A stretch of DNA of 34,325 nucleotides from Deltaproteobacteria bacterium (GCA_021413675.1 JAIOQA010000083.1:1-34325); one strand, 5' to 3'. Counted from the first letter of the stretch, positions 2,079 to 13,262 are shown. Notes: a model not told the origin generated them from the sequence alone. A program made the numbers and translations.

Positions 2079-3578
2079 CTACGCCTGGTCGAGCGCGGTC
2101 CGCACCCGGATCGCCAGCTGCTCTGGCGTGTACGGCTTGTCGAGCACCTGCCAGGTGTCGCGCATCACGCGGCTCTCGTCGGCGAAGCCCGAGGTGACGA
2201 GCACGCGCAGCTCGGGTCGCAGCGCGCGCAGCGCGATCGCCAGCCGCAGCCCGTTCATCTGCGGCATCGCGTAGTCGGTGAACAGCAGGTGGATCGGCCC
2301 GACGTGGCCCTCGGCCACGCGCAGCGCGTCGGCGCCGTCGCGCGCGGTGAGCACGACGTAGCCCAGCTCGGTGAGGATCGTCGTGACCAGCTTGCGCAGC
2401 GCGTCCTCGTCCTCGGCGACCAGGATGGTCTCGCCACCCCGCACGACCGCGACCTCGGGCGCCGCCGCGGCCTCGGCGAGCGCGGCGGTCGGCAGGTGGA
2501 TGACGAACGTCGTGCCCTGGCCGGGCGCGCTGTCGACGTTCACGTACCCGCCGTTCTGGTGGATCACGCCCTGCACCGTCGCGAGCCCGAGGCCGGTGCC
2601 GCGGCCGAGGTCCTTGGTCGTGAAGAACGGCTCGAAGATGCGCTCGCGGGTCGCGGCGTCCATGCCCTCGCCGTCGTCGGCGACCGTGATCCGGACGTAC
2701 TCGCCGCGCGGCACGAGCGCGCCGTCGTGCGCGATCGCCACCCGGTGGGTCGCGATCCGCAGCGCGCCGCCCGATGGCATCGCGTCGCGCGCGTTGGCGG
2801 CGAGGTTGAAGAGCACCTGCTCGAGCTCGACCTGGGCGATCCGCGCCGGGCCGGTCGCGGGCGCCGCCTCGAACGCCAGCGCGACGTGGGCGCCGACGAG
2901 GCGCGCGAGCAGCGGCATCATCGCCTCGATCACCGCGGCGACGTCGCACGCGTCGGTGGCGGGCTCGCGCCGGCGCGCGAACGTCAGGAGCTGTCGGGTC
3001 AGCGCCGCCGCGCGCTCGGCCGCCTCGAGCGTGACGGTGAGGTCGGCGCGGCTGCGATCGTCGGGGCCGAGCCGGCGCATCGCGAGCGAGGTCGCCGTCG
3101 TGATGACCGTGAGCAGGTTGTTGAAGTCGTGCGCGATGCCGCCGGCGAGCCGCCCGATGCTCTCGAGCTTGCGGGCCTCGACCAGCGCGCTCTCGAGGCG
3201 CTTGCGCTCGGTGATGTCGTGCAGCGTCGCCACCAGCTGCACGATCCGGCCGGCGTCGTCGAACTCGGGGTCGACGTTGACCATCAGCCACACGCGGTCG
3301 GCGCGCCGCGGCCGGTACACGCCCATGACCACGTTGCGGACCGGCTTGCCGGTCGCGAGCACCTGCGACATCGGGCGCTGCGCCGCCTCGAACGGCGTGC
3401 CGTCCTCGCGCACGATGTTCCAGTCGGGATCGTACGAGGTCTTGCCGCGGTACTGGTCCTCGTCGAGCCCGAGCAGCTCGAGCGCCGCCGGGTTGCACAG
3501 CAGCACCTCGGTGCTGGGGCCCTGCACCACCACGCCGACGCGGAGCGCCTCGACGAGCGCGGCGAAGCGATCAGGCAT
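2079..3578 (-). CDS. Hybrid sensor histidine kinase (PAS - HisKA - HATPase_c - receiver)
   Basis: It has an N-terminal PAS-like region, an H-box IAHDFNNLL, an N/G1/G2 ATPase region (LFNLAANARDAM...DDGEGMD...GTGLGLA) and a C-terminal receiver (ILVAEDEDALR...LFTDYAMPQMNG...KPYT). The start cat at 3576-3578 overlaps the upstream hydrolase stop by 8 nt. Confidence 0.9.
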   Translation of the reverse strand: MPDRFAALVEALRVGVVVQGPSTEVLLCNPAALELLGLDEDQYRGKTSYDPDWNIVREDGTPFEAAQRPMSQVLATGKPVRNVVMGVYRPRRADRVWLMVNVDPEFDDAGRIVQLVATLHDITERKRLESALVEARKLESIGRLAGGIAHDFNNLLTVITTATSLAMRRLGPDDRSRADLTVTLEAAERAAALTRQLLTFARRREPATDACDVAAVIEAMMPLLARLVGAHVALAFEAAPATGPARIAQVELEQVLFNLAANARDAMPSGGALRIATHRVAIAHDGALVPRGEYVRITVADDGEGMDAATRERIFEPFFTTKDLGRGTGLGLATVQGVIHQNGGYVNVDSAPGQGTTFVIHLPTAALAEAAAAPEVAVVRGGETILVAEDEDALRKLVTTILTELGYVVLTARDGADALRVAEGHVGPIHLLFTDYAMPQMNGLRLAIALRALRPELRVLVTSGFADESRVMRDTWQVLDKPYTPEQLAIRVRTALDQA

Positions 3579-4287
3579 GAGCCAAGAGCGCCGCGGCGGC
3601 GAGGTCCGGCGCGGTGACCATGACGTCGTGGGGGGCGTCGAGCCGCGCGAAGCGCCAGCCCTCCGCCTGCGCGCGCGCCGCGAACCCGGCGAGCGGATCG
3701 ACGCCGAACAGCGCGATCAGCCCGGCGTGCTGCGTGCATTCGAGGTAGCTGCGGGCCAGCCCATCCGGCGCGCCGGCCAGCCGCACCGGCTCGAGCAGCG
3801 TCCGCATCGGGTGCGGGTGGCGCCGCGGCGCGACCCACGCGACGTCGGCAGGCGCCGTCACCCCGACGGCGTCGAGCGGCAGCGGCGGGAGCTGCCAGGT
3901 CTCGTCGGAGAGCGCGGCCAGCCCCGCGGTCGTGGCCTCGCCCATCGCGCCGCTCGCGGTCTGGCCATCGATCGGCGCCTGGGCGTCGAGGTAGACGAGC
4001 GCCTTGAGCCGCGCCGCCTGCCGGCTCGCGACCACGGTCGCGACCGTCCCGCCGTAGCTGTGCCCGACCAGGATCCCGTCGTGCACGTCCTCGTGGACCA
4101 GCGTCGCCTCGAGATCGCAGACGTGGGTCTCGAGCCCGATCTCGCGCGACAGCAGGTGGATGCGATCACCGCAGCCGGTGAGGGTGGGCGTCAGCACCTC
4201 GTGGCCGGCCGCGCGCAGCCGCGCCGCGACCCGGGCCCAGATCCAGCCGCCGTGAAAGGCGCCGTGCATCAGGATGAAGCAAGCCAT
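3571..4287 (-). CDS. Alpha/beta-fold hydrolase (SABP2/methylesterase-like, 238 aa)
   Basis: The real gene is the C-terminal 238 aa of the 720-aa track ORF. It reads MACFILMHGAFHGGWIWARV..., with a nucleophile elbow GHSYGG. A strong SD GGAGGGGGG lies upstream of the ATG (cat at 4285-4287). The upstream part of the track ORF is Arg-rich read-through. Confidence 0.8.
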   Translation of the reverse strand: MACFILMHGAFHGGWIWARVAARLRAAGHEVLTPTLTGCGDRIHLLSREIGLETHVCDLEATLVHEDVHDGILVGHSYGGTVATVVASRQAARLKALVYLDAQAPIDGQTASGAMGEATTAGLAALSDETWQLPPLPLDAVGVTAPADVAWVAPRRHPHPMRTLLEPVRLAGAPDGLARSYLECTQHAGLIALFGVDPLAGFAARAQAEGWRFARLDAPHDVMVTAPDLAAAALLAHA

Positions 4288-4380
4288 CGTCCCCCCTCCG
4301 GAGCGAATAGTCCGGCCGGCGCGGCCGAAAGTCGAGGGGGCGGACGTCGAGGGGCGTGAGGACGCGGCCTGCGCGTCCGG

Positions 4381-4418
4381 AACGAAAACGGCCCGGTGAT
4401 CCGCTGGATCACCGGGCC
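4381..4418 (-). terminator. Rho-independent terminator of the EF-G gene
   Basis: A perfect 13-bp stem GGCCCGGTGATCC/GGATCACCGGGCC with a 3-nt loop at 4390-4418. On the transcribed minus strand it is followed by GTTTTCGTT (4381-4389). It lies 6 nt downstream of the EF-G stop. Confidence 0.6.
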
Positions 4419-4424
4419 TCTTCG

Positions 4425-6449
<2,025 letters not shown>

Positions 6450-7016
6450 GGCTGTTCCATGGCGAGACCGGGAGTTCCGGTCGCGCGGACGAGCGAGAGT
6501 GATCCGCCAGGCGGGCCGCGCGAGCCGGCAGGCCTGTCGAGCGGCCCCGTCGACGACGACGGGCCCGATTCCGGACAGACCTCAGCCGGCGACGTGGTCG
6601 CCAGAGGGCGGATCGCGGGGTTGGCGATCGCGCATCATCCGCGTCGGAGCGGTCGCGGCGGATCTCGACGAGAGACCGCGCGCGACGGAGGGGTGCTCCG
6701 CCGCGGCCTAGCGACGTCCCGGAAACACGGACAGGACGCAGTAATCATGCGCGCGCACGCTCGCCGCCACGTGGGCAGCGGTTGCGCGGGGGAAGCGGAG
6801 CTTCGGCATGACGATCCTCGGGCGTCACCCTAGAGTCGCGATCACCGGATGTCAACAACCCATCTCGAAGTGACCGAGTCTGCGCCGATGATCGCGAGTG
6901 CGAGATCGCGAGATCGGGAGACCGCGGCGCGGCCGCGGGAGGGGCATCGCCCGCGCATTTTGGTTGACGATGAACCGGCGTCCGCGCTACTGGTCCGGCC
7001 ACTCAAGGAGCACATC

Positions 7017-7878
7017 GTGACCCTCGCCCGCACACTCACCTACGCCATCCTGACCCTGCCCATGCTGGCGTGCGCGGTCGACAAGGCCGACGTCGACGAG
7101 GACTTCAGCGACCTCGCCGGCCTCGACGCGAAGTCGGACTACTTCTCGTACCGCCTCAAGCTCCTCGGCACCCTCACCGACGGTGACGCGAAGACCGTGC
7201 GCTACACCAAGACCCCGCGGTTCCGCGGCTACGACTTCACGGCCCTGCCCGGCGAGTCGGTCGACGTCTGGGTCCGCTCGTCGACCGGCGATGCGCTGGC
7301 GTGGGTCCTCGACGGCAAGTTCCGCGTCATCGCCAAGAACGATGACGCCGACGACACCACGTACGACGCGCACCTCGCGGTCGTGTTGCCCGCGAGCGGC
7401 ACCACCGATCACCGGTACTACGTCGTCTTCCGCGACTACGACGCCGCGAGCCGCACGTTCCACGTCAGCTTCGCGCACGCGGCGACCGCGCCCACCGACG
7501 CGGCGTGGCAGCGCGCGGCGGAGGACCGGATCGCGCAGCTGGTCGGCGATTACGCGCCGCTGGCGGCGTTTGCGGTGCCGGCCTCGGCGATGCCGGCGGC
7601 AGCCAAGGACCGCATCGCGGCGAGCGCCGCGGTGCTCGAGGTGCCCACGACCTACACGATCGACGTCGACGGGCGGCCCGTCGATCGACGGCGCCGGGCG
7701 CTGGTTCGCGCACGGCATCGGCCGCTCCGTCTGGGATGGCGGCGGCGGGCTGGCCTGGTCGCTCGACAGCGCCGATCCGACGATGTGCCGCTGCACCGGG
7801 ACGGGCGCGAGCGCGACGGCGACGTGCACCTGGATGGACGGCAGCACCTCGCCGGCGACCGAGCTGACCTGCGAGTGA
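7017..7878 (+). pseudogene. Lipoprotein with a bacterial pre-peptidase C-terminal (PPC)-like domain and an apparent +1 frameshift near 7665-7690 (disrupted gene or sequencing indel)
   Basis: GTG at 7017 lies 6 nt after AAGGAG. The signal and lipobox read TLARTLTYAILTLPMLAC, and a PPC-like segment reads GESVDVWVRSSTGDALAWVLDGKF...DDADDTTYDAHLAVVLPASGTTDHRYYVVFRDYD. After ...TYTIDVDGRP the high-GC3 coding frame moves to +1, reading SIDGAGRWFAHGIGRSVWDGGGGLAW...CTWMDGSTSPATELTCE and stopping at 7876-7878. The original frame continues as low-GC3 Arg-rich text to 8081. Confidence 0.5.
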
Positions 7879-7915
7879 CCCGCGGGCCGCGGTCGGCGCG
7901 CTCGCGCGGCGCGGT

Positions 7916-9064
7916 TCACGCCGCCATCGCACCCACGCGGTGCGGCCCCGGCGCGACCGCCGGCCGCGGCGCGACCGCCGCGGACGCGCGCTTCACCGAC
8001 CGCCGCGCCGACGGCAGCGCGAGCGTGGCGATCCGCTTCGCGACGCTGCCGAGCTGCTTCGCGAAGCTGCCAGTCGCGTAGCTCTGGCCGTAGCGCGCGC
8101 AGATCGCGCGGACCTTCGGCGCGAGCTCGGGATAGCGCGACGCCGGCAGATCGGGGAACAGGTGGTGCTCGATCTGGTGGCTCAGGTGCCCGGTCAGGAC
8201 ATGCAGCCAGCGGCTGCCCTCGATGTTGGCCGAGCCGTTGAGCTGGCGCGCGTACCACTCGCCGCGGCTCTCGTGCTCGGTGTCGGCGCGATCGTAGACC
8301 TGCACGCCCTCGGGGAAGTGGCCGCAGAAGATGACCGCGAAGGTCCACAGGTTGCGCCCGAGGTTGGCGAGCCAGTTGCCCGCGATCACCCGCGGCGCGT
8401 TGCCGAGCGCGAGCGCCGGGTAGAACACGTAGTCCTTGCCCAGCTGCCAGCCGGCCTTGCGCAGGAACGGTCGCGCGCGCTCGCGCAGCGCCGCGAACGA
8501 CTGCTTGCCGGCGAAGGCCTCGTCGATGCGCAGATCGTGGGTCGCGACACCCCACTGGAAGTTGACCGCGAGCGCGAGCGCGGTCAGGGGCTGCGCCAGG
8601 TGCGACGGCCGCCACGCCTGGGCCTCGTTGACCCGCAGGAAGCCGTAGCCGACGTCGCGGTCCTTGCCGAGGATGTTGGTGAACGTGTGGTGCTCGTAGT
8701 TGTGCGAGTGGCGCCAGTCGCCCGCGTCGCACGCGTTGTCCCACTCGTAGGCATGGCCGGCGAGCGCCGGATCGCCGGTCCAGTCGTACTGGCCGTGCAT
8801 CACGTTGTGGCCGATCTCCATGTTGTCGAGGATCTTGGCCAGGGTCAGCGCGGTGGTGCCGACCGCGAACGTGATCGGCCCGAGGCCCACGTGCAGGAGC
8901 ACGCGACCGGTCGCCTCGCAGGTGTTGGCGACCTTGATCACCGCGCGGATGTGGTCGACGTCGCGCTGGCCGAGGTCGGCGAGCACCTCGGTGCGCAGCG
9001 CATCGAGCTCGCGGCCGAACGCGTCGGCCTCGTCGCGGGTCAGGGTCCGGCTCGGGGTCGTCAT
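7916..9064 (-). CDS. desB: Membrane acyl-CoA/acyl-lipid fatty acid desaturase (DesB/DesA3-type)
   Basis: Three His boxes are present: HNVMHGQY, HSHNYEHH and HQIEHHLFP. It has hydrophobic membrane segments. The SD GAGAGGA precedes the ATG (cat at 9062-9064). It is the downstream partner of the oxidoreductase, matching Pseudomonas desCB. Confidence 0.88.
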   Translation of the reverse strand: MTTPSRTLTRDEADAFGRELDALRTEVLADLGQRDVDHIRAVIKVANTCEATGRVLLHVGLGPITFAVGTTALTLAKILDNMEIGHNVMHGQYDWTGDPALAGHAYEWDNACDAGDWRHSHNYEHHTFTNILGKDRDVGYGFLRVNEAQAWRPSHLAQPLTALALAVNFQWGVATHDLRIDEAFAGKQSFAALRERARPFLRKAGWQLGKDYVFYPALALGNAPRVIAGNWLANLGRNLWTFAVIFCGHFPEGVQVYDRADTEHESRGEWYARQLNGSANIEGSRWLHVLTGHLSHQIEHHLFPDLPASRYPELAPKVRAICARYGQSYATGSFAKQLGSVAKRIATLALPSARRSVKRASAAVAPRPAVAPGPHRVGAMAA

Positions 9065-9095: not shown

Positions 9096-10190
9096 TCACA
9101 GCGCCAGCTCGAGATCCGAGCGCGCCGCGGAGATGCACAGCTGGATGTCCTGATCCGGCGCGCTCGACTCGACGCCGGTGATCAGGTTCACGACCGTGCC
9201 GCTGGTCTTGCGGCAGGTGCAGGTGTGGCAGATGCCGATGCGGCAGCCCGACGCCGGGCGCTCGCCGGCGCGCTCGAGCTGCTCGAGCAGCGAGCCATCG
9301 GTCGAGGCGGGCACCGTGCGCGCCGCCCGCGCGAGCGACAGCTGCACCCGCGCGGCCGGGCCGCTGGCCGCGCGCGGCGCGGGCACGACGAACCGCTCCT
9401 GGTGGAGGCGATCGGCGAGCCCGTCCTGCGCCCACATCGCGGCGACGCGATCCATGAGGCCGGTCGGCCCGCACACGAAGGTCGCGCGGCGCGCGCGATC
9501 GGGGACCGCGGCGGCGAGCGCGGCCTCGTCGAAGCCACCGCCCTCGTCATCGAGGCGGAGGATCAGCCGCAGGCCCGGGTGACGCGCGGCCAGCCGGGCC
9601 AGCTCGCCGCGGAACGGCACGTCGGTGGCACTGCGCGCGTGGTGCACGAAGACCACGTCGTCGACCGCGCCCGTCGCCGCGAGCTCGCGCAGCATCGACA
9701 TGACCGGCGTGATGCCGCTGCCGCCGCTCAGCAGCAGCAGCGGCCGGGGTGCGTCGGGCAGCGTGAACTCGCCGGCGGGCGCGCCCAGGCGCAGGACCTG
9801 GCCCGCCTTCACGTGGTCGTGCAGCCAGCCCGAGACCCGGCCGCCGGGCACGCGCTTGACCGTGATCGACAGCGTGCGCGCCGACGGCGGCGACGCGATC
9901 GAGTAGCAGCGGCGCACGCGCACGCCGTCCAGCTCGACCTCGACCGTCGCGAACTGCCCGGCCTTGTGCCCGGGCCAGCGCCGGTTGGGCGCGAGCACGA
10001 AGGTCTTCACGTCCGGGGTCTCGGCGATGACCTCGATCACGCGCGCCTGGACGTGGCGAAACGAGCGGGCGCTGCCGACCGCGCCCAGCCAGAACTCGGC
10101 CTGGCGGTCGAGGAACAGCCCGCGGGCGACCGCGGTGGCGGTGGCGCGCCAGGTGCGGGCGGCGGAGGTGGGCATCGCGGGGGTGGTCAT
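9096..10190 (-). CDS. desC: Desaturase-associated oxidoreductase with FAD/NAD(P)-binding ferredoxin-reductase fold and a C-terminal 2Fe-2S ferredoxin domain (DesC / Rv3230c-like)
   Basis: It reads RCYSIAS...GGRVSGWL (FAD-binding), LLLSGGSGITPVMSM (NAD-binding) and a C-terminal CRIGICHTCTC cluster. The start was chosen at the second ATG (10188-10190), which has AAAGGAG 5 nt upstream. The track ORF extends 12 codons further. Confidence 0.85.
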   Translation of the reverse strand: MTTPAMPTSAARTWRATATAVARGLFLDRQAEFWLGAVGSARSFRHVQARVIEVIAETPDVKTFVLAPNRRWPGHKAGQFATVEVELDGVRVRRCYSIASPPSARTLSITVKRVPGGRVSGWLHDHVKAGQVLRLGAPAGEFTLPDAPRPLLLLSGGSGITPVMSMLRELAATGAVDDVVFVHHARSATDVPFRGELARLAARHPGLRLILRLDDEGGGFDEAALAAAVPDRARRATFVCGPTGLMDRVAAMWAQDGLADRLHQERFVVPAPRAASGPAARVQLSLARAARTVPASTDGSLLEQLERAGERPASGCRIGICHTCTCRKTSGTVVNLITGVESSAPDQDIQLCISAARSDLELAL

Positions 10191-10200
10191 CGGGGCTCCT

Positions 10201-10217
10201 TTGTTACGCAACCGTAA
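10201..10217. promoter_or_regulatory. Candidate TetR (DesT-like) operator half-site pair 1: TTGTTACGCAACCGTAA
   Basis: It lies in the divergent intergenic region between desC and the TetR gene. A near-identical copy with the 8-bp core inverted occurs 97 bp away at 10299-10316. Confidence 0.4.
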
Positions 10218-10298
10218 GTTACTCATTCGTAGGTTTCAGTCAATCCCCAATCGACGCACCGCACCACAGCGCCGGCTATCGTGCGGGATGCGCTCGGA

Positions 10299-10316
10299 TT
10301 GTTACCGTTGCGTAAC
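10299..10316. promoter_or_regulatory. Candidate TetR (DesT-like) operator site 2: TTGTTACCGTTGCGTAAC
   Basis: Its reverse complement GTTACGCAACGGTAACAA matches site 1 except for one base. It lies 27 nt upstream of the TetR start codon. Confidence 0.4.
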
Positions 10317-10343
10317 CTACGGTCGTGGCTTAGCGTGGCCGCC

Positions 10344-10964
10344 ATGAAGAGCAGTCGCACCCGGCTCCCGGCGACCGAGCGCCGCGCCCAGCTCATCGAT
10401 GTCGGCCGCGCGGTGTTCGCGAAGCACGGCTACGAGGCGACCTCGATGGAGGACATCGCCGACAAGGCCAAGGTCTCCAAGCCGATCGTCTACGAGCACT
10501 TCGGCGGCAAGGAGGGCCTCTACGCGGTCGTCGTCGATCGCGAGATGGACTACGTCGTGCGGCGGATCGTCGAGGCGATCGCCTCGGGCTCGCCGCGCGA
10601 GCGGGTGGAGCGCGCGGCGCTGGCGTTCCTCAACTACGTCAAGGATCATCCCGATGGCTTCGCCGTGCTGTCGCAGGACTCACCGCTGACCTCGTCGCGC
10701 GGGCGGCTGTCGAGCCTGCTCAACGATCTCGCCGAGCGCGTCGGCGACGTGTTCGCCGCCGGGTTCAAGGACGCCGGGTTCGATCCCAAGTCGGCGCCGA
10801 TCTACGCCCACGCGCTGGTCGGCATGATCACCTTCGTCGGCAAGTGGTGGACCGACGTCCGCAAGCCCTCGGTCGAGGAGGTCGCCAAGCACATCGGCGC
10901 GCTGGCCTGGATGGGCCTGCGCCACCTGCCGAAGAAGCCGACGCTGGCGATCCGCCCGGGCTGA
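10344..10964 (+). CDS. desT: TetR-family transcriptional repressor (DesT-like, divergent from desCB)
   Basis: The HTH reads [52 protein letters not shown] 10344 was chosen over the track's GTG 10281 so that the operator-like site lies upstream. Confidence 0.85.
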
Positions 10965-11017: not shown

Positions 11018-11683
11018 ATGATCGATCTGTACACCGCCGCCACGCCCAACGGCCACAAGGTCTCGATCGCGCTCGAGGAGCTCGCCCTGCCCTACACGGT
11101 CCACGCGATCGATCTGGGCAAGCGCATGCAGAAGGAGCCGGCGTTCCTGCGGCTGAACCCCAACGGTCGCATCCCGGTGATCGTCGACCGCGCGCACGAG
11201 GACTTCGCCGTGTTCGAGTCCGGCGCGATCCTCCTGTACCTCGCGGAGCAGACCGGCCGCCTCCTGCCGACCGACGCGAAGGGCCGCTCGCTCGTCGTGC
11301 AGTGGTTGATGTTCCAGATGTCGGCGGTCGGGCCGATGATGGGTCAGGCCAACGTCTTCCACCGCTACTTCCCCGAGAAGATCCCCGCCGCGATCCAGCG
11401 CTACCAGAACGAAAGTCGCCGGCTGTTCGAGGTGCTCGACGGTCGGCTCGCCGAGAGCGAGTGGCTGGCCGCCGACTACTCGATCGCCGACATCGCCACG
11501 TATCCCTGGGTCAAGACGCACGACTGGTCGGGCGTGTCGGTCGAGGGACTACCGCAGCTCCAGCGCTGGATGGCCGCCTGCGCGGCGCGCCCGGCGGTGG
11601 TGCGCGGCCTCGCGGTCCCGGCCCGGCGCGACGCCGACGCGGCGGCGGTCGCGAAGACCGGCGCGTCGATCATCCAGCTGTGA
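11018..11683 (+). CDS. yfcG: Nu-class glutathione S-transferase (YfcG-like GSH-dependent disulfide-bond oxidoreductase)
   Basis: The N-terminus [22 protein letters not shown]...[15 protein letters not shown]...[12 protein letters not shown] is closely similar to E. coli YfcG (MIDLYFAPTPNGHKI...). ATG at 11018 verified. Confidence 0.85.
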
Positions 11684-11798
11684 TGCACGGCGTCGCACAC
11701 AGTGGCCGGTGAGCCTGCCACTCGCACCTACGTCCGGCGATCGGACAGTGCCACCGACGAGGATTGACGAGCCCGCGCGCCACACGCTACGAAGGACG

Positions 11799-13262
11799 AT
11801 GTCTCGATTTCACTTTGCTGTGATGAGCCTGACACTCGTGGCGTGTGGTGGTGGGAGCTCGAACCCGCCGGATGCGAATCCGCCGGATGCGGCGCCGCCG
11901 GTGGTGACGCTGGGCGTGCCGTGCACCGACACGACCGACGACGTCTACAAGCTGCCGGCCTCGGAGCCGGCGTTCGACGAGACCCACCGGGGCGACGTGT
12001 TCCGGTGCTCGCGCGACCGCTGGATCGACGCGGCCTCGCTCGACGCCGCCGCGCGCGTGGCCGGCTACGTCGGCCCGACCTTGACCAGCGGCGCGACGAT
12101 CTTCCGGATCGCGTATCGCACCGAGCGCGCCACCGAGGGCACCGAGCTGGTCGAGGGCCACAGCGCCGGCTTCCTGCTCGTCCCCGACGCGCCGCGCGCG
12201 ACCGGCGCGCTGGTCGTCTACGCCCACCCGACCGTCGGCATCGCGCCGATCTGCGCGCCGTCGCACCTCGACCTCGGCGCCCGGGACGACGGCTGGGAGG
12301 CGGTGCGCTCGCCGATGCTCGCGATGGTCGGCGCGGGCTTCACCGTCATCGCGCCCGACTACGCCGGCTTCAGCTACGGCGAGCCGCCGTCGTTCGCGAT
12401 CTCGTCGGATGAGGGCCGCTCGATCCTCGACGCGACCCGCGCGGCGACCCACCTCCTGCCCACGGCGATCCGCCCGGGCAAGGTCGTGATCGTCGGTCAC
12501 TCGATCGGCGGCCACGGCGCGCTGTCGGCGCACGCCATGGCGGCGAGCTACGGCCATGATGGCGAGCTGGTCGGCGTCGCGACCTACGCGCCGTTCTGGG
12601 TCTCGAACCTGGCGTGGGGCGGGTTGCTGAGCCCGTCGCTCGGCTTCAACACCACGACCGCGTCGTACCTCCTCGCCTACGACCTGATCTACTTCTACAC
12701 GCACGGCGAGGTGCTCGATGGCCCCGGCCACGGCGTGGACCTCATCAAGCCCGAGAAGCAGGCGGCGGTGACCACGCTGGTCACGACCAAGTGCCTCACC
12801 CCGGTCGCCGAGGGCATGAAGGACCTGGGCGCGACCCCGGCGGACTACTTCACCCCGACCGCGGTGAGCGTGCTCGGCAACTGCGGCCTGTCGGGCAACT
12901 GCACGACCGACCCGTCGCCCAAGTGGTTCACCCGCTTCCTCGCCGACCGCCCGGCCATCGACGCCGCGGGCGCGCCGATCGTGATGTGGTTCGGAGAGAA
13001 GGACACGACCGTGACGCCCGGCTTCGCGCGCTGCGCGGTCGAGAAGATCGAGAAGGATCTCGGCACCTCGGGCACCACCGCGATCACGCTCTGCGACGAT
13101 CCCGACGGCGAGCACAGCACCGGCCCGAAGAAGCAGGCCGCTTGGGTGAACGACTGGATCGCCGCGCGGGTGGACGGCACCGCCGAGCCGACCTGCACCG
13201 CCCCCAAGGCGCCCGCCGACGGCGGTGCGGCGTGCCCGGCGCTCCCGCCGAACCAGTTCTGA
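11799..13262 (+). CDS. Secreted lipase-like alpha/beta hydrolase lipoprotein
   Basis: ATG 11799 follows GAAGGA. The signal and lipobox read MSRFHFAVMSLTLVAC, followed by a Pro/Ala-rich linker. It has a GHSIGG nucleophile elbow and a Cys-rich C-terminus. Confidence 0.8.
   Translation: MSRFHFAVMSLTLVACGGGSSNPPDANPPDAAPPVVTLGVPCTDTTDDVYKLPASEPAFDETHRGDVFRCSRDRWIDAASLDAAARVAGYVGPTLTSGATIFRIAYRTERATEGTELVEGHSAGFLLVPDAPRATGALVVYAHPTVGIAPICAPSHLDLGARDDGWEAVRSPMLAMVGAGFTVIAPDYAGFSYGEPPSFAISSDEGRSILDATRAATHLLPTAIRPGKVVIVGHSIGGHGALSAHAMAASYGHDGELVGVATYAPFWVSNLAWGGLLSPSLGFNTTTASYLLAYDLIYFYTHGEVLDGPGHGVDLIKPEKQAAVTTLVTTKCLTPVAEGMKDLGATPADYFTPTAVSVLGNCGLSGNCTTDPSPKWFTRFLADRPAIDAAGAPIVMWFGEKDTTVTPGFARCAVEKIEKDLGTSGTTAITLCDDPDGEHSTGPKKQAAWVNDWIAARVDGTAEPTCTAPKAPADGGAACPALPPNQF

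Follow-up and report, generated by a model that had tools for sequence, protein, structure and literature searches.

The acyl-CoA-responsive TetR repressor acting on palindromic operators is a textbook arrangement, and the gain from the locus described here lies in its annotation and in the scope of the comparison, not in a new concept. In Pseudomonas, the repression of desCB by DesT responds to acyl-CoA (PMC10634369). For desA1 and desA2, which encode soluble desaturases, the TetR-type repressor is MadR (Rv0472c), and saturated acyl-CoA relieves its repression (PMC8872791). FasR (Rv3208) is an activator of fas-acpS that recognizes three inverted repeats at fas; acyl-CoA with a chain of at least C16 threads the FasR tunnel and displaces the protein from DNA, to which neighbouring FasR dimers bind side by side (PMC7382501). 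McGuire et al. predicted in 2012 a clustered TAC-N6-GTA motif upstream of the mycobacterial genes desA3 (Rv3229c), Rv3230c and fas, and linked it to palmitate-induced genes (PMC3388012). A preprint reports Rv3230c-Rv3229c as an operon and attributes the 12-bp inverted repeat in front of Rv3230c to the TetR protein Rv1019 (10.1101/2022.04.26.489556), which makes Rv1019 another candidate for the cognate protein in mycobacteria.

We analyzed a 34,325-nucleotide stretch of high-GC DNA from a myxobacterial metagenome-assembled genome, referred to below as the window. It encodes a TetR-family regulator that is 100% identical over 206 aa to the database protein P0001 and whose close relatives in the databases are labelled Kofleriaceae or Polyangia. 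Positions 10191-10343 are exactly the 153-bp intergenic gap that separates the TetR gene on the plus strand from a reductase-desaturase operon on the minus strand, and the gene order given by a first-pass annotation of the sequence was confirmed.

7916 to 9064, minus strand: membrane fatty-acid desaturase, second gene of the operon (Pfam FA_desaturase PF00487, E 1.4e-26)
9096 to 10190, minus strand: FAD/NAD-binding ferredoxin-type reductase with C-terminal 2Fe-2S, first gene of the operon (Pfam FAD_binding_6, NAD_binding_1 and Fer2)
10196 to 10202, minus strand: AAAGGAG, seen in the sequence itself, as Shine-Dalgarno of the reductase; the block is kept in an alignment of eight intergenic regions
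10344 to 10964, plus strand: FasR-like TetR-family regulator of 206 aa (Pfam TetR_N plus TetR_C_24/32/46), the presumed box-binding protein

The reductase ATG lies at 10190 with AAAGGAG just before it, and this start is equivalent to the gene calls in relatives. Homologues of the desaturase occupy the same position in nine related loci (L001, L007, L081, L083, L085 and L087-L090). The window desaturase matches the NCBIfam DesB model only weakly, at 28 bits against a cut-off of 500. As in the two-protein desaturase DesA3/Rv3230c, a membrane FA_desaturase is combined here with a FAD/NAD/2Fe-2S reductase, and the reductase gene comes first. The domain set of the window reductase is that of Rv3230c/DesC.

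The gap holds four boxes of the form TAC-N6-GTA, one of them degenerate.

10205 to 10216, unstranded: box L1, TACGCAACCGTA, exact TAC-N6-GTA; its columns are kept in the eight-region alignment
10220 to 10231, unstranded: box L2, TACTCATTCGTA, exact, starting 15 bp after L1
10303 to 10314, unstranded: box R1, TACCGTTGCGTA, exact TAC-N6-GTA
10318 to 10329, unstranded: box R2, TACGGTCGTGGC, degenerate, 15 bp after R1, with GGC as its right arm versus GTA

An exact TAC-N6-GTA occurs three times in the 34-kb window, always within 10205-10314, against 0.28 expected. The longer TTAC-N6-GTAA occurs twice, both times in the gap, where 0.00 would be expected from 100 shuffles. When we searched for two boxes 15 bp apart and allowed up to 2 mismatches, only two matches were found in the window, at 10205-10231 (exact) and 10303-10329 (2 mismatches), compared with 0.02 expected. 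The unit itself can be fixed: every isolated box has the form TAC-N6-GTA, and we therefore rejected GTA-N3-TAC, a form in which no isolated box occurs, as the putative binding unit. The spacing of the box arms is compatible with the usual operator spacing of a TetR dimer.

The first-pass annotation had recognized two operator-type sites in the gap. Both exist, with L1 and R1 as their cores, but the count is four boxes in two 15-bp-phased pairs, since L2 and R2 had been missed. Both 17-mers are present, TTGTTACGCAACCGTAA at 10201-10217 and TTGTTACCGTTGCGTAA at 10299-10315; the end of the second had been placed at 10316, one base too far. The 15-nt arms of the two sites are 93% complementary. 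Their 8-bp cores had been called reverse complements, which is inexact and holds at 7 of 8 positions (the reverse complement of CGCAACCG is CGGTTGCG, versus CCGTTGCG in the second site). Neither this relation nor the shared TTGTTA flanks, the two traits that had been stressed, is conserved, and both are gone in the closest relative, L081, whose TetR protein is 96% identical. There the first site reads TACCTGACCGTA and the left flank of the second is cgcc, while L081 and the window agree in the TAC/GTA arms, in the 15-bp partner box and in all positions. Because they are absent from L081, we regard the core complementarity and the TTGTTA flank as incidental, and reverse-complement cores were rejected as a functional feature.

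In the center of the gap, which is not conserved, an imperfect 12-nt inverted repeat spans 10259-10286 (CCGCACCACAGC/GCTATCGTGCGG). It is not kept in relatives, is probably meaningless and was dropped as an element.

We scanned one genome per species with an alignment of the TetR protein, which returned 80 loci. All 16 loci with at least 57% TetR identity, from Myxococcota, Binatia and some Actinomycetota metagenome-assembled genomes, carry TAC-N6-GTA boxes immediately in front of the TetR gene, in most cases two to four of them in an array with exactly 15-bp spacing. In the window together with L001-L016 (153.6 kb), 48 of 50 exact boxes sit just upstream of the TetR gene. Extending the count to 88 loci (743 kb) gave 204 exact boxes versus approximately 26 expected, with 89 neighbor distances of exactly 15 bp. 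Exact pairs numbered 82 versus 0 in shuffles, and at least one pair was present in 14 of the 16 loci L001-L016 and in 57 of the 64 loci L017-L080. A metagenome scan added 80 further loci, and there boxes were found upstream of every homologue of at least 59% identity that had upstream DNA. About 115 loci from Myxococcota, Binatia and Actinomycetota thus show the TAC/GTA arms and the 15-bp phasing beside a TetR homologue.

The consensus is (A)(A/G)(C/G)T-TACG-N4-CGTA-(A/G)(C/G)T(T), a unit made of a 12-bp palindrome and a 3-bp AsT linker. When eight intergenic regions were aligned, the conserved columns were only the Shine-Dalgarno block, the four boxes, GTCAA, a -10-like TAG/TAC block and the ATG; about 60 nt in the center of the gap showed no sequence conservation. 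This phylogenetic footprint, with boxes that track the TetR family across phyla, supports the earlier proposal of operator-type sites for the divergent TetR. The boxes are a real conserved element and, judged from sequence, putative binding sites of the adjacent TetR protein.

A generic sigma-70 promoter and terminator scan of 9900-10600 returned nothing, and our promoter proposals rest on conserved TTGAC and TAnnnT elements, by a consensus-like argument.

10238 to 10243, minus strand: predicted -35 TTGACT of the reductase-desaturase promoter (AGTCAA on the plus strand)
10216 to 10221, minus strand: predicted -10 TAACTT of the reductase-desaturase promoter, at the L1/L2 junction, fitting TAnnnT and 16 nt after TTGACT
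10308 to 10313, plus strand: predicted -35 TTGCGT of the TetR promoter, inside box R1
10331 to 10336, plus strand: predicted -10 of the TetR promoter, TAGCGT, separated from TTGCGT by 17 nt and from the ATG by 7 nt

On the TetR side of 43 of 57 clusters, GTCAA lies 6-9 nt past the last box, whereas the other side has it in none (0/57); on the desaturase strand it reads TTGAC. The GTA-AsT-TAC junction is also found in relatives. With these elements, box L1 would cover the predicted +1 region and box L2 would lie in the predicted promoter spacer of the desaturase operon.

On the other side of the gap, the 17-nt spacer of the predicted TetR promoter contains box R2. L081 and L083 keep the R1 core CCGTTGCG, and L089 very nearly does; we attribute this conservation to the -35-like hexamer TTGCGT embedded in the core. 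In L085, L087, L088, L090, L001 and L007, the R2 position is an exact box and the R1 position is degenerate. A TAGnnT element also stands 6-7 nt before the ATG in L081 (TAGTCT), L083 (TAGATT) and L089 (TAGCTT), and the window sequence has no Shine-Dalgarno before the TetR gene. A -10-like hexamer so close to the ATG, combined with the missing Shine-Dalgarno, suggests that the TetR mRNA is leaderless. Because boxes would lie over both promoters, repression of both transcription units can be argued: their positions point to a left pair acting on the desaturase-operon promoter and a right pair acting on the TetR promoter. The idea in the first-pass annotation that two sites serve the two divergent genes fits these predicted overlaps.

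The first-pass annotation had proposed a DesT-type regulator, which was not borne out by our searches. The best NCBIfam match of the TetR protein is mycobacterial FasR (NF053731, model positions 4-197 of 199), at 122.7 bits versus an equivalog cut-off of 330, so the function of FasR is not simply transferable. The best PDB matches are the M. tuberculosis FasR structures 6O6P, 6O6N and 6O6O (phmmer E 1.4e-28, query residues 6-197), and a profile search against PDB again placed FasR first (E 5e-30), over the full length including the effector domain. We estimate the identity between the two proteins at roughly 35%. No DesT-named chain appeared among the 47 PDB matches (E<=1e-5) or the best 60 profile matches; DesT structures are present in PDB.

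In the recognition helix, the segment VSKP(I/V)xYEHF hardly varies within this TetR family and is close to VSKPVLYQHF of FasR. The patterns used in the locus search enforced YEHFGGK, and only the rest of the segment counts as evidence. FasR residues L98, F123 and F138 form a hydrophobic transmission spine and matter for signal transmission (PMC7382501). When aligned with the window protein, F123 corresponds to F95 (identical), L98 is replaced by V71 (conservative) and F138 by S110 (not conserved). An AlphaFold2 model built from a 15-sequence alignment was too poor to use (mean pLDDT 60, pTM 0.53). A TAC-N6-GTA box stands at the start of TACCCGTACGTAGAACTCGCCAGTA (TACCCGTACGTA...), the oligonucleotide that was co-crystallized with FasR (PMC7382501).

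The window regulator resembles FasR in its full-length homology, its similar recognition helix, the F123/F95 identity and the box in the FasR oligonucleotide. The two systems also share several adjacent sites, to which FasR dimers bind side by side, and the clustered TAC-N6-GTA palindromes of the FasR-like group are present here as the putative operator. Unlike FasR, the window TetR is linked to desaturases rather than to fas, and the positions of its boxes predict repression, not activation.

The comparison with DesA3/Rv3230c drawn in the first-pass annotation is accurate, given the TAC-N6-GTA clusters predicted in front of Rv3229c, Rv3230c and fas. The McGuire motif has the same TAC and GTA arms around six less conserved bases. 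It is published as evenly spaced clusters of two or three sites (the 15-bp figure comes from the present loci), precedes a pair of genes for a reductase and a desaturase and, as a further likeness, is tied to fatty-acid-responsive expression. It differs in being a computational prediction for which no adjacent regulator gene was reported, whereas here the cognate TetR gene is divergent and has its own operator pair, and the host is a myxobacterium.

The layout of DesT-desCB in Pseudomonas aeruginosa, where the TetR gene diverges from genes for a reductase and an acyl-CoA desaturase, is matched in the window and kept in L081-L090. The expected logic, that of an acyl-CoA-responsive and self-controlling repressor, is also shared, but DesT belongs to a different TetR subfamily. 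The window system would work like DesT/desCB, but its place is among the FasR-like TetR proteins, together with the mycobacterial TAC-N6-GTA motif. MadR likewise combines a TetR protein with desaturase genes, and L005 and L006 have the DesA1/DesA2 class of desaturase. The MadR motif, TCTGTGxxxxxxxGT, is unrelated to TAC-N6-GTA and was rejected as a match for the boxes.

The TetR gene is the constant neighbor of the boxes, and the enzyme gene beside it changes among four desaturase classes.

Window, L001, L004, L007, L011, L012, L015 and L081-L090: reductase plus membrane desaturase
L003 and L009: membrane desaturase alone, approximately 357 aa
L005 and L006: soluble acyl-ACP-type desaturase (FA_desaturase_2 PF03405), unrelated to the membrane type
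L008, L010, L014 and L016: short membrane desaturases of 260-290 aa

L002 is an exception, in which a PGAP1-like alpha/beta hydrolase gene is divergent from the TetR gene. In the 64 actinomycete loci L017-L080 (Streptomyces, Micromonospora and others; approximately 54% identity), the TetR gene follows the desaturase gene in the same orientation, with its start overlapping the desaturase stop, and the exact 15-bp pair found in 57 of them stands upstream of the desaturase. This repeated re-pairing with desaturases provides strong contextual evidence that the TetR protein regulates desaturases, with the boxes as its putative operator.

Within the actinomycete operons, the pair of TACG-N4-CGTA boxes precedes the desaturase start by about 40-70 bp, and the genera include Saccharothrix and Kribbella. 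In L017, for example, the boxes are at 2840-2866, the desaturase at 2877-3929 and the TetR gene at 3926-4621. We found no published description of an actinomycete desaturase-TetR operon with such a box pair. The soluble desaturases of L005 (3021-3923, minus strand) and L006 (2980-3894, minus strand), both from Actinomycetota metagenome-assembled genomes, come with a three-box array and TetR proteins of 69-72% identity.

On the 3' side of the window TetR gene lie a glutathione S-transferase gene (11018-11683, plus strand) and then a secretory-lipase-like (LIP/alpha-beta hydrolase) gene (11709-13262, plus strand), in front of which no TAC-N6-GTA boxes were found. In L081 the lipase gene (4757-6223) directly follows the TetR gene with no glutathione S-transferase gene between them, so the latter appears to be an insertion in the window lineage.

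The best overall explanation, and one that we consider likely, is that the gap contains two operators for a FasR-like TetR protein that represses both the desaturase operon and itself and is released by acyl-CoA. Each operator would be a pair of 12-bp palindromes, T-TACG-N4-CGTA-A, with starts exactly 15 bp apart. The left pair (10205-10231) would overlap the spacer, -10 element and start site of the leftward TTGACT-16-TAACTT promoter of the reductase-desaturase operon, and the right pair (10303-10329) would overlap the -35 element and spacer of the rightward, probably leaderless, TetR promoter. One TetR dimer would occupy each box, with neighbors side by side, and RNA polymerase would be blocked at both promoters; TetR would thus repress the desaturase operon and its own gene. 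By homology with FasR, long-chain acyl-CoA in the effector tunnel would take TetR off the DNA, and the desaturase would be induced.

We also considered that TetR, bound to these boxes, might activate transcription in the manner of FasR at fas, in which case acyl-CoA would turn the desaturase operon down. FasR is the closest characterized homologue, and its activation of fas-acpS and departure from DNA on long-chain acyl-CoA (PMC7382501) speak for this scheme. However, the boxes lie downstream of the conserved TTGAC and over the predicted spacer, -10 and +1, which is the position of a repressor. An enzyme that uses acyl-CoA would be expected to be induced by its substrate rather than shut off, and the mycobacterial motif goes with palmitate-induced genes (PMC3388012). 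Activation is therefore improbable in our judgement.

Two further possibilities are much harder to sustain. The shared layout of divergent TetR gene, reductase and desaturase could reflect a strict DesT/desCB module, with a DesT orthologue that binds tighter with unsaturated and looser with saturated acyl-CoA, in keeping with the acyl-CoA-responsive repression of desCB by DesT (PMC10634369). This is very unlikely for a protein that matches FasR over its full length at 1e-28, has no DesT-named chain among its 47 PDB or best 60 profile matches, and has its relatives in Myxococcota, Binatia and Actinomycetota. It is just as unlikely that the boxes are read by a regulator encoded elsewhere and that the adjacent TetR is a bystander. 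At desA3 and Rv3230c the mycobacterial motif is described without a neighboring TetR gene (PMC3388012), and the preprint assignment to Rv1019 (10.1101/2022.04.26.489556) would fit a distant reader. Against this, in about 115 loci the boxes travel with the TetR family while desaturase class, gene order and phylum change; a box or pair lies directly on the start region of the TetR gene itself; and the helix segment VSKP(I/V)xYEHF is nearly invariant and near that of FasR, the search-enforced YEHFGGK part not being counted as evidence. Least probable of all is that the repeats are mere promoter elements or a chance likeness, although box junctions double as TAnnnT -10-like hexamers and R1 holds the -35-like TTGCGT. 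The boxes have twofold symmetry and strict 15-bp phasing, form arrays of up to four, and stand on one or the other side of promoters as well as in the leaders of Streptomyces operons; shuffles give 0 pairs, and these counts contradict the idea.

A side observation concerns the separation of the operator pairs. Among relatives with 78-96% TetR identity, the pair centers lie 98-101 bp apart, and the length of the spacer is kept while its sequence is not. Measured from start to start, the distances that separate the inner boxes of the two pairs fall into clusters at 51, 71-75, 83-86 and 114-115 bp, which is approximately 5, 7, 8 and 11 helical turns (window, L081, L083, L085, L087-L092, L001, L002, L004 and L007). 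This pattern of spacer lengths may reflect looping or a face-of-helix constraint, with the assignment of degenerate boxes being ambiguous.

For the control of a desaturase in an uncultured myxobacterium, the locus supplies a putative operator, a predicted promoter map and a candidate ligand. The mycobacterial TAC-N6-GTA clusters appear to be part of a wider system of FasR-like TetR proteins and desaturases in soil bacteria of at least three phyla, and a regulator gene that adjoins its target may help to decide whether FasR or Rv1019 reads the desA3 motif in mycobacteria. We found no literature link between FasR and desA3, for which only the MadR paper was returned, nothing relevant on the motif string or on myxobacterial desaturase regulators, and no published description of the wide conservation of the TetR/operator/desaturase unit or of the operator-pair separation. 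We tentatively propose, as an idea somewhat more apt to fail than to hold, an undescribed regulon that spans Myxococcota, Binatia and Actinomycetota: a desaturase-dedicated branch of FasR-like proteins with a 15-bp tandem grammar of TACG-N4-CGTA boxes and four desaturase classes, in which the myxobacterial array is split into two pairs. Their separation keeps its length and comes close to whole helical turns, which would point to looping that connects the divergent promoters.

Departures from the common arrangement were seen at a few loci. L089 has a second FA_desaturase gene (6865-8004, minus strand) about 2.2 kb downstream of the TetR gene, and an isolated TAC-N6-GTA at 8509, inside a neighboring gene, that is probably there by chance. 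In L099 (about 1112-1159) and L101 (about 738-785), two boxes overlap at a 6-bp offset, as in TACGAATACGTCACCGTA, which breaks the 15-bp rule and gives 21-bp steps.
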